Below are positions 28,538 to 31,500 of a stretch of DNA of 64,000 nt, one piece after another. How positions within the stretch are numbered: the stretch's first letter is position 1; each line of letters begins with the position of its first letter. Origin of the DNA: Escherichia coli (lineage in GTDB: Bacteria; Pseudomonadota; Gammaproteobacteria; Enterobacterales; Enterobacteriaceae); assembly GCF_009931435.1 (NCBI RefSeq), contig NZ_CP043414.1; one strand, given 5' to 3'. The position numbers are program-made.

Positions 28538-31500
28538 AACCTGTCTTTACGCGGTAGCTTCATCCTCGGCTAAACGCGTTTCAGCATCCGCGACAATGGC
28601 TTCCAGTTCGCTCAACATCTCTTCATAGCCAAAATTATTGGCGGTGCGAGCCGGTTCCTTCGCCACCACGGGCTTCACTGGCTGACGCTTTTTGGCCGAT
28701 TTTTTACTCATCATCATCTCCCTGTAAAAACAACTAGACAGGCAAATCTATCAGCAAAGCGCGCAGTGGGGAATCGGCAACCAGCGTAATGTTAGCCTCG
28801 TCACGAATAAACGCCCCATCACCGCAGGTCAGCACCGCTTTCTCTTCATGATGCGTAAGCGCATGAAATTGCCCGTGAATCGATTGCAAATACGCGCGTG
28901 GCCCATGCAACTGGAAATTCGCACTTTCGCCTTTGTCTAGCACGATATGATGCAGCCACACTTGCTGGCGCAACTGCAGGCTTCCCATCGCCCCCTCTGG
29001 CGAGGCGATTAATTGCTGCTTGCCCATATCAAGCGCCAGTTTTTGAATCAGCGGATTCTCTCGCTGCGGGCAGGCATCCAGCCAAAGCTGCATCCGTGTT
29101 AACGGTTTGTCTTTGCTGAGATTGTGTTCGCTATAGCTGATACCCGGCTGGGTAGAGAGCAGCAACGCTTCACCTGCGTAGGCCTGAATATGATTGCCTT
29201 CGCTGTCACGATACTCAGCTTCTCCATCCAGAATCACATTTAAAATATCGACTTTGGGATAGGTTCGTGGCTGGAAGGCGGCACCTGGGGCCAGAACTTC
29301 CTGGTTAAGCACACGCAGGGAGGCATAACCTAACAATTTCGGGTCGAAGTAGTGTCCAAAGGAAAAAGTATACCGGGCCTGCAACCATCCGTAGTCTGCT
29401 TGTCCACACTGCCTGGCAGTTCGGGTAGTAATCATAATTCTTGACCTCTCTTTACTTCCTTTTATGGTAAGGGGCTGGACGCTACATTGTTAGCCAGATA
29501 TTCTGCCCGGTATGTTCAAATTTCCTGAATGAGAACGAAATGGCCAAAGAAAGGGCATTAACGCTGGAAGCACTACGGGTTATGGATGCGATCGATCGCC
29601 GGGGCAGTTTTGCGGCGGCGGCGGATGAGCTGGGACGCGTGCCTTCCGCACTTAGCTACACCATGCAAAAACTAGAAGAAGAGCTGGATGTGGTGTTGTT
29701 TGACCGCTCGGGCCATCGCACCAAATTCACCAATGTCGGGCGAATGTTGCTGGAGCGAGGGCGCGTTTTGCTGGAAGCCGCAGATAAACTGACTACCGAT
29801 GCGGAAGCCCTCGCGCGCGGTTGGGAAACGCATCTCACCATTGTGACTGAGGCGCTGGTACCGACACCCGCCTTTTTCCCGTTAATCGACAAACTGGCGG
29901 CAAAAGCCAATACCCAACTGGCAATCATCACCGAAGTGCTGGCGGGGGCGTGGGAACGGCTGGAGCAGGGGCGCGCGGATATTGTTATCGCGCCGGATAT
30001 GCATTTTCGCTCCTCGTCGGAGATCAACTCGCGCAAACTCTATACCTTAATGAACGTCTATGTTGCCGCGCCTGATCACCCGATTCATCAGGAGCCGGAA
30101 CCGTTATCTGAAGTGACGCGCGTGAAATATCGTGGAATTGCGGTGGCGGATACCGCTCGTGAGCGCCCGGTGTTGACCGTACAGCTGCTGGACAAACAGC
30201 CGCGCTTAACGGTGAGCACGATTGAAGATAAACGTCAGGCATTACTGGCGGGGCTTGGCGTGGCGACGATGCCGTATCCGATGGTTGAAAAAGATATTGC
30301 GGAAGGACGGTTGCGTGTCGTCAGCCCGGAATCGACCAGCGAGATCGATATTATTATGGCCTGGCGTCGTGACAGTATGGGGGAAGCGAAATCCTGGTGT
30401 CTGCGGGAAATTCCCAAACTTTTTAGCGGAAAATAATATTTGTTATTTTTAATAAAAAGGGGCGAAATATCGCCCCAATTCTAAGATTAATTTGAACCAA
30501 ACTTCGGATCGTTTCCGTAACGATTGCTGCCAGAATTGCCTTCTAAACAGGCAAATACAAACAGAACTAACCAGCCAATGACCGGTACCAGATAGAGAAG
30601 CGCCCACGCACCTGAACGGTCAGTATCGTGCAGACGACGAACGCACAGAGCAATGACCGGAATGATTGTTGCTGCCAGGTAAATGAGAGAAAGGAATGGA
30701 AACTCTAAACCTAAAATCAATTGAATGACATTGATAATAGTGCCGACGATGGCGTTAATCAGAGTAAACATCCAGTACTCTTTACGACGTGCACGACCAG
30801 AGAAACCAACATAATTTTTTAATACGGCTAAATACCACTGCATAAAAACATCCCTTTAATTAAAAGTTGCGAAAGTCTATTCCGGGGATGGAGTAAATGC
30901 TATTCGTATCTTTCTTTTTCGGATGTTATAAAGGTTTTGATATTTAAGATAAATACATGGTCGTGTTTTATATGTAATTTATATAACGACATTGAAATAA
31001 TTTCAATAAACATTAGGAGATTATTTATTCATCAACATGATGATAAAAGCCGGATGAGTCAGACATCCGGCGAGGAGATTTGTTTTAAGGTTCCAGTTTC
31101 GGATCTGGTCCAAAGCGGTTTTCGCCTGGCGTACCTGCCTGGCAGTTAAAGACGATGATAATCAGCCAGCCGATAAACGGAATTAAGAACAGCAGTGCCC
31201 ACCACGCCGAGCGGTCGGTGTCGTGCAGGCGGCGGAACTGAACTGCCCACCATGGTAAAAACACCAGAATACCGTAGATTGTCGTCAGGATGCCTTCGCC
31301 ACCGGCGCGTTGCCAGCCTAACATTTTATCCAGCAGCCCCAGCACGAACGTAAAGATGATGTTGACCAGAATAAACATCCAGTACTCTTTGCGCCGCGCA
31401 CGGCCCCGGAAACCGACATAATTTTTTAGTACTTTCAGATACCAGTCCATTTTTGCCTCAATTTTGCTCAATCACTTGTTTTTAAAGCAGCAAATTAAGA

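Follow-up and report, generated by a model that had tools for sequence, protein, structure and literature searches.

The DUF805 genes yhaH and yhaI of Escherichia coli: a conserved gene and its accessory, mosaic neighbour

Are two adjacent, homologous membrane-protein genes of Escherichia coli the two products of one old duplication, kept side by side ever since, or do they bring separate histories to a shared locus? We addressed this question for yhaH and yhaI, which lie in a 64,000-nucleotide stretch of E. coli DNA (contig NZ_CP043414.1 of assembly GCF_009931435.1; hereafter the window). Both genes are read from the minus strand, yhaI at 30487..30843 (118 aa, called from its open reading frame (ORF) and Pfam) and yhaH at 31085..31450 (121 aa, called in the same way and from RefSeq annotation of near-identical strains), and both are predicted to encode DUF805 inner-membrane proteins. 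They are already annotated E. coli genes, and the pair is known and ordinary. An earlier note on this DNA had presented them as separately transcribed tandem paralogs, the products of an old duplication whose copies were retained as independent units; taken as stated, this covers two E. coli 'y-genes' that had been annotated before, and contains nothing new. We consider it reasonably probable that the two monocistronic genes belong to distinct old DUF805 lineages, with yhaH as a core gene and yhaI as an accessory cassette added to a single-copy site.

Homology and distribution of the two genes

Alignment of YhaH with YhaI by BLASTP covers the whole length of both proteins, with 63 of 118 positions identical (53%), four gap positions and an E value of 2e-44. 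Both exceed the gathering cut-off of Pfam PF05656 (DUF805; 25.7 bits), YhaI with 108.5 bits over residues 11-110 and YhaH with 120.9 bits over residues 11-115. The asserted paralogy was thus confirmed, and since the similarity spans the whole proteins it cannot be put down to a short shared motif. Across 40 diverse DUF805 members, 19 columns are invariant and 16 nearly so; YhaH and YhaI keep them, including (in YhaI numbering) R17, R20, E22, W24, R69, R70, H72, D73, P87, N107, G110 and P113, and both carry the conserved motifs GRARRKEYW, RRLHDxxRS and, at the C-terminus, G.N.(Y/F)G.DPK. The near-identical N-terminal segment WYL.VLKNYVGF.GRARRKEYWMF, which the earlier note had singled out, is real; it is not particular to this pair, because the motif is conserved family-wide in DUF805. 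In DNA, the two genes agree at 78% of their first 96 nt, and shared codons match at the third base in 77% of cases in codons 1-32 versus 32% in codons 61-100. As to gene conversion behind these similar 5' ends, a cross-genome matrix of the first 96 nt gave no clear within-genome excess: E. coli yhaI shares 78-79% of positions with its E. coli neighbour yhaH, 80% with the yhaI of Intestinirhabdus and 74-75% with the yhaH of Salmonella and Klebsiella.

Among Enterobacteriaceae, orthologs of YhaH show 73-86% identity (84% in Salmonella and Klebsiella; 73-78% in Enterobacter, Yokenella, Buttiauxella and Atlantibacter), and yhaH would be the conserved copy, passed on vertically, that lies between yqjG and yhaJ in the whole family. 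Outside E. coli, YhaI-type orthologs are patchy, the best being 119-aa proteins of 59-67% identity in Superficieibacter, Intestinirhabdus, Citrobacter amalonaticus and others. The interval between yqjG and yhaJ holds only yhaH in Salmonella, Klebsiella, Escherichia marmotae and Escherichia sp. E2562. The same interval shows the tandem order yqjG, 121-aa gene, 119-aa gene, yhaJ in C. amalonaticus; it contains three DUF805 genes in Superficieibacter, with the YhaI type in the same slot, and solely a YhaI-type gene in Intestinirhabdus. Within E. coli itself, a contiguous empty site with neither yhaI nor the spacer was found in 1011 of 5426 complete genomes (~19%); counted by state, ~2293 genomes carry the allele seen in the window, ~2074 carry the K-12 type and ~1051 have no yhaI.

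Comparison of the window with the yhaI-less E. coli strain L003 placed the breakpoints of the yhaI cassette at 30438..31089. These 652 bp hold yhaI and the spacer, a terminator for each of the two genes, and the final codon and stop of yhaH; a segment of ~40 bp replaces them in genomes that lack yhaI. The empty site, made up of the 33-bp intergenic sequence TAATTAAGCACCTTG.AAAAGGTGCTT.AT.GA and a yhaH ending in ...KLEQE, is common to E. coli L003, E. marmotae and E2562, and is therefore no fresh deletion scar. Base composition sets the neighbours apart, with a GC content of 0.43 and a third-codon-position GC content (GC3) of 0.41 for yhaI versus 0.52 and 0.63 for yhaH. A neighbour-joining tree with 200 bootstraps recovered YhaH as a clade with 100% support and YhaI as one with 73%, and gave no support to the two as sisters, the protein being short and poor in deep resolution. 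Of the proposed old duplication, the old divergence stands, both lineages occurring in several genera; the sister pair is not recovered. The split between YhaH and YhaI is old and may stem from a tandem duplication in some enterobacterial ancestor. That the copies have simply been kept since a duplication in this lineage does not agree with the absence of yhaI from the 1011 E. coli genomes and from E. marmotae, E2562, Salmonella and Klebsiella, and is not supported by the homologous empty site, the GC3 contrast and the lack of a resolved sisterhood. Rather, yhaI would represent a second lineage, accessory in Escherichia, on an AT-rich cassette that brings a terminator and a regulatory region of its own.

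The gene is also mosaic. A block of 180 bp at 30529..30708 (minus strand; codons 46-105) takes in the end of loop 1, transmembrane helix 2, the RRLHDTDRS loop and transmembrane helix 3. Between the window and K-12-type yhaI, synonymous divergence (dS) in this block is 1.45 and nonsynonymous divergence (dN) 0.20, against a dS of 0.07 over codons 1-45 and of 0 over codons 106-118; in the same comparison the flanking genes give dS values of 0.11 (yhaH), 0.10 (yhaJ) and 0.26 (yqjG, above its neighbours). Sliding identity in the block falls to 71-78%. Judged from these boundaries, it is in all appearance an import with sharp limits, taken from a highly divergent gene of the YhaI type, and would have replaced the resident sequence after the cassette was gained. 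The gene is under purifying selection (dN/dS ~0.14-0.19), and the value of 0.14 in the divergent block, together with conservative swaps in the membrane helices, therefore points to recombination and not to positive selection; diversifying selection on the alleles was ruled out on these grounds. A recombinant of the two allele classes exists (P0004). Frameshifted K-12-type forms occur as a 139-aa protein (P0064, 345 contigs) and a 131-aa protein (P0076, 190 contigs), both of which lose the C-terminal G.N.YG.DPK. A frameshift of yhaI in O157 was ruled out for the one strain checked, which has an intact K-12-type gene.

Three further variants or sequence features were observed at the locus. One E. 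coli isolate without yhaI (L004:1608-1673) carries an internal deletion that leaves a 66-nt yhaH remnant and no intact DUF805 gene. The E. marmotae YhaH variant P0131 (L094:2501-2860; 119 aa, two contigs) is missing QFR just before RLHD, the common form having 122 aa. The heptamer ATTTGTT is present at 30438-30444, at the left cassette edge, and again at 31078-31084, 5 bp inside the right edge; in such AT-rich DNA this could easily be chance.

Transcription units and regulation

Both stop codons are followed by a G+C-rich hairpin and a U-run on the minus strand. The terminator-like element 3' of yhaH (31039..31071; hairpin 31071..31049, GCCGGATG-loop-CATCCGGC then TTTTAT) has eight pairs, six of them G-C, and a predicted folding energy of -15.0 kcal/mol (z -4.79); it sits within the 652-bp cassette, and yhaI-less E. 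coli carry a different hairpin at this position. The element 3' of yhaI (30451..30476; hairpin 30476..30459, GGGGCGA-loop-TCGCCCC then TTTTTATT) has seven pairs, six of them G-C, folds at -16.3 kcal/mol (z -4.67) and is convergent with the end of yhaJ; a similar hairpin, CGGGGCAAT...TTTGCCCCG, follows the YhaI-type genes of C. amalonaticus and Intestinirhabdus. For either hairpin, 0 of 200 shuffled sequences were equally stable, and the region holds five terminator-like sites against 1.3 expected. By sequence and folding, each gene thus appears to have its own terminator, as had been proposed.

The AT-rich spacer between the genes, previously put at about 240 bp, measures 241 bp (30844..31084, minus strand) with 30.7% GC against 49% for the window, and holds the putative regulatory region of yhaI. 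An Rfam search of the spacer gave no match. The sequence TTTTAATTAAAGGGATGTTTTT-ATG ahead of yhaI resembles that before the start codon of YhaI-type genes in C. amalonaticus and Intestinirhabdus. A relaxed scan predicts a candidate sigma-70 promoter for yhaI at 30978..31006 (minus strand; TTGAAA, 17 nt, TATAAA; 10 of 12 positions), whose -35 lies in the palindrome TTGAAATTATTTCAA (31006-30992) and corresponds to TTTAAA in the K-12-type allele. Ahead of yhaH, a candidate sigma-S-type extended -10, TCTATTCTTAA, can be read at 31495..31505 (minus strand), the sigma-S extended -10 consensus being KCTAYRCTTAA; strict and relaxed sigma-70 scans gave nothing at this position. Transcription of yhaH is predicted to start near 31492, ~42 nt ahead of the ATG. 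This candidate start fits a Salmonella reporter fusion beginning at -43 and the rise of YhaH in stationary phase (PMC5137417).

Published expression data separate the two genes further. In enterohaemorrhagic E. coli (EHEC), Ler activates yhaI 36-fold, making it one of only four activated genes outside the locus of enterocyte effacement (LEE); yhaH is absent from this list, and the authors describe yhaI as unconnected with any mobile element (PMC3891560). Upon CpxR overproduction in MG1655, yhaI rose 3.2-fold on arrays and 40.3-fold by quantitative PCR (qPCR), against 1.9-fold for yhaH, and yhaJ rose 2.0-fold (PMC2731931). The expression profiling under envelope stress that the earlier note had called for is therefore in effect already in print, with the 40.3-fold qPCR value for yhaI against 1.9-fold for yhaH. 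In Salmonella, the yhaH mRNA is a direct target of the small RNA SdsR, and YhaH protein increases toward stationary phase (PMC5137417). The separate transcription claimed for the pair is supported by the terminator-like hairpin between the genes, the candidate sigma-70 promoter in the spacer and these divergent Ler and CpxR responses.

Taken together, the division of labour would be regulatory. In such a scheme, yhaH would serve as the routinely expressed copy, rising toward stationary phase and repressed by SdsR; yhaI would normally be low or silent, probably through H-NS acting on the AT-rich upstream region, and would be strongly induced by Ler and by Cpx, the envelope-stress regulator. Chromatin immunoprecipitation data for H-NS, or hns-mutant data, covering the yhaH-yhaI locus were not found in the literature searched.

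Origin of the yhaI cassette

If yhaI is an accessory cassette, the ancestral state would be a single-copy site into which yhaI was gained in most E. coli, most likely through homologous recombination in the conserved flanks, yhaH and yhaJ, the donor being an enterobacterium with the tandem pair already in place. Several observations weigh against this reading. In the searches made, no donor close to either yhaI allele block was found, and on either side of the cassette no recombination tract stands out clearly. The call of gain over loss rests on two Escherichia outgroups, E. marmotae and E2562, with the yhaI-less E. coli genomes taken as a count. As regards independent control of the two genes, the promoters are pattern matches, and a strict sigma-70 scan of 30300-31800 returned no sites, the candidate yhaI promoter having been missed because the last base of its -10 is A. 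The spacer also contains no CpxR box (GTAAA-N5-GTAAA, up to two mismatches), and the Cpx effect on yhaI may thus be indirect.

The account given in the earlier note, taken here to mean an ancient tandem duplication at the locus followed by vertical inheritance, with both copies retained in E. coli and later deletions elsewhere, explains readily why yhaH and yhaI are adjacent, co-oriented and homologous over their full length, and why the same arrangement of a yhaH-type and a YhaI-type gene recurs in C. amalonaticus and Superficieibacter. Purifying selection on yhaI agrees with it as well, as does the presence of tandem DUF805 arrays in unrelated lineages (5 of 80 loci; Polaribacter, Aquimarina and Hafnia), from which the family appears prone to duplication. 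It requires, however, that yhaI was lost cleanly and separately in Salmonella, in Klebsiella, in E. marmotae, in E2562 and in ~19% of E. coli, and the empty site of E. coli does not look like a new deletion but matches the sequence of E. marmotae and E2562, with a different yhaH C-terminus and a different terminator. A GC3 of 0.41 beside one of 0.63 is unexpected after long co-residence, and the tree does not pair the two clades as sisters. We therefore regard vertical duplication as an unlikely though credible account. Decidedly unlikely, in our view, is an arrival of yhaI as a xenolog from outside Enterobacteriaceae, for example on a plasmid, with a landing beside its distant relative yhaH. 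What speaks for it is that YhaI is 54-58% identical to Firmicute and Streptomyces DUF805 proteins, with those of Paenibacillus, Exiguobacterium and Pasteurellaceae in this range, versus 48-56% to YhaH orthologs; that its clade joins the general DUF805 pool, and not YhaH, in the neighbour-joining tree; that the gene is low in GC; and that a contig bearing Rep3, integrase, Wzz and chaperone-usher genes also carries a YhaI-type gene, P0120 (61% identical). Yet it is improbable that such a gene would by chance have landed precisely between yhaH and yhaJ in four or more genera, a 120-aa protein resolves deep phylogeny poorly and YhaH may be a long branch, and a plasmid collection yielded no close YhaI relatives except mislabelled chromosomes. 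A species-representative genome scan with YhaI returned no Escherichia and only distant-phyla relatives of at most 57% identity, with no donor and no synteny.

A third account would make yhaI a decaying, functionless remnant whose variability reflects relaxed constraint. Its absence from about one fifth of genomes, the frameshifted forms on 190 contigs (131 aa) and 345 contigs (139 aa), and the faster divergence of yhaI orthologs than of yhaH orthologs could all be so explained. The gene is nonetheless intact in more than 4000 complete genomes, keeps all 19 family-invariant residues, holds a dN/dS of 0.14 even inside the hyperdivergent block, and responds strongly and specifically to Ler and CpxR, which leaves decay very improbable indeed. 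Two lineages at one locus, with yhaH as the core gene and yhaI as the cassette, is thus the reading that we carry forward.

Protein features, locus context and known systems

In the AlphaFold2 model of YhaI (predicted local distance difference test score 90.5), a short helix at the N-terminus is followed by three long hydrophobic helices (20-44, 50-73 and 78-99, with a kink at P87 in the third) and by a small hairpin at the C-terminus. The predicted helix layout of YhaH matches, in agreement with the common topology ascribed to the pair. By the positive-inside rule, the distribution of charged residues suggests that the N-terminus lies inside and the C-terminus outside; against this orientation, YhaH figured in a screen that admitted only proteins whose C-terminus is predicted or shown to be cytoplasmic, and in which its GFP fusion was mislocalised without YidC (PMC3225971). 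Structure searches gave neither a solved relative nor a fold match that was informative. The 111 ORFs that flank 57 DUF805 loci fell into 139 different Pfam families, each in at most four members, with no conserved partner. Nothing in these results supports the old annotation of YhaI as a 'putative cytochrome', DUF805 being its sole family match above the curated cut-off. As a weak guess, DUF805 members might be small membrane-embedded proteins that hold the invariant, charged motifs GRARRKEYW and RRLHDTDRS at one membrane face and have a role in envelope homeostasis.

The window runs opposite to the K-12 orientation of the E. coli chromosome, and its gene order is yhaK (-), yhaJ (+, 29540-30436), yhaI (-), yhaH (-), yqjG (-) and yqjF. 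Of the span 30487-31471 first given for the pair, the left end holds; the right end lies 21 nt too far, at the TTG start of a mechanical yhaH ORF (31085-31471, 128 aa), since the RefSeq start in a 99.6%-identical strain is the ATG equivalent to window position 31450, which yields 121 aa. The mechanical ORF of yqjG (31733-32902) likewise has 389 aa from a GTG, against 328 aa in RefSeq (31733-32719). The intergenic region between yhaH and yqjG (31560-31700) contains palindromic units resembling repetitive extragenic palindromic (REP) elements and is 86-87% identical to that of a K-12-type strain; a sub-threshold Rfam match to naRNA4, which is REP-related, falls at 31648-31684, upstream of yhaH. 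In the divergent intergenic region of yhaK and yhaJ, two overlapping CpxR-box-like matches (GTAAA-N5-GTAAA), each with one mismatch, occur at 29441-29465.

DUF805 genes were also seen on mobile DNA. Shiga toxin (Stx)-converting phages (Shigella phage 75/02 Stx, KF766125.2, L096:2471-2860; POCJ13) carry an intact, unannotated DUF805 ORF of ~123-129 aa, 40% identical to YhaI, which sits in the nin region, is read against the direction of the genes around it and is moron-like. The YhaI-type gene P0120 (119 aa, GC3 0.33), found at L089:4001-4360 and L090:4001-4360 and labelled E. coli, belongs to contigs that carry, beside the Rep3 replication, integrase, Wzz and chaperone-usher genes already mentioned, a CaiF/GrlA-type regulator, and that are probably plasmid.

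A connection with phages has been reported for yhaH. E. coli TK001 that has lost YhaH resists PhiWec188 and PhiWec190, two phages of the Stephanstirmvirinae, and becomes sensitive again on complementation (bioRxiv 10.1101/2024.11.29.626071; PMC12695924). This resistance is the only phenotype that we found for the pair. One could extend it to yhaI, as a laterally exchanged paralog of a phage-required protein, with a role of DUF805 in phage entry or exclusion at the inner membrane and with phage pressure keeping the polymorphism. If so, the three yhaI states, the Ler and Cpx wiring, and the DUF805 genes on Stx prophages and a plasmid would all reflect phage entry or exclusion. We consider this extension distinctly improbable.

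In practical terms, yhaH is the copy of choice for studies of function, being conserved and having the phage-resistance phenotype. The neighbouring yhaI is AT-rich and responsive to Ler and Cpx; about one fifth of complete E. coli genomes lack it, its alleles fall into two deeply divergent classes, and results obtained with yhaI of K-12 or EHEC need not carry over to strains that have the window-type allele or no yhaI. The accessory status, mosaic alleles and regulation of yhaI form a modest but coherent addition to what was known of the pair.

Set against known systems, the window has the same locus, gene order and neighbours (yqjF-yqjG-yhaH-yhaI-yhaJ-yhaK) as K-12, where yhaH (b3103) and yhaI (b3104) are annotated as DUF805-family inner membrane proteins. 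Its YhaH is identical to that of strain L002, which has the K-12-type yhaI allele; its yhaI belongs to the other allele class, encodes a protein 84% identical to the K-12 type and is given no yhaI gene name by the NCBI pipeline. Inner-membrane proteins are familiar as phage host factors, with ManYZ serving lambda and PtsG serving HK97. YhaH is likewise an inner-membrane protein needed by phages. Of an arms race the yhaI alleles give no sign, their helix swaps being conservative and dN/dS 0.14. A further parallel concerns the AT-rich, horizontally acquired genes of E. coli that are silenced by H-NS (xenogeneic silencing) and activated by Ler. The yhaI cassette is likewise low in GC beside neighbours of normal GC, polymorphic in presence and absence, and Ler-activated, with a spacer GC of 0.31 and 36-fold activation in EHEC; it differs from such genes in spanning only 652 bp, in having no mobility gene and in holding a paralog of its own neighbour.

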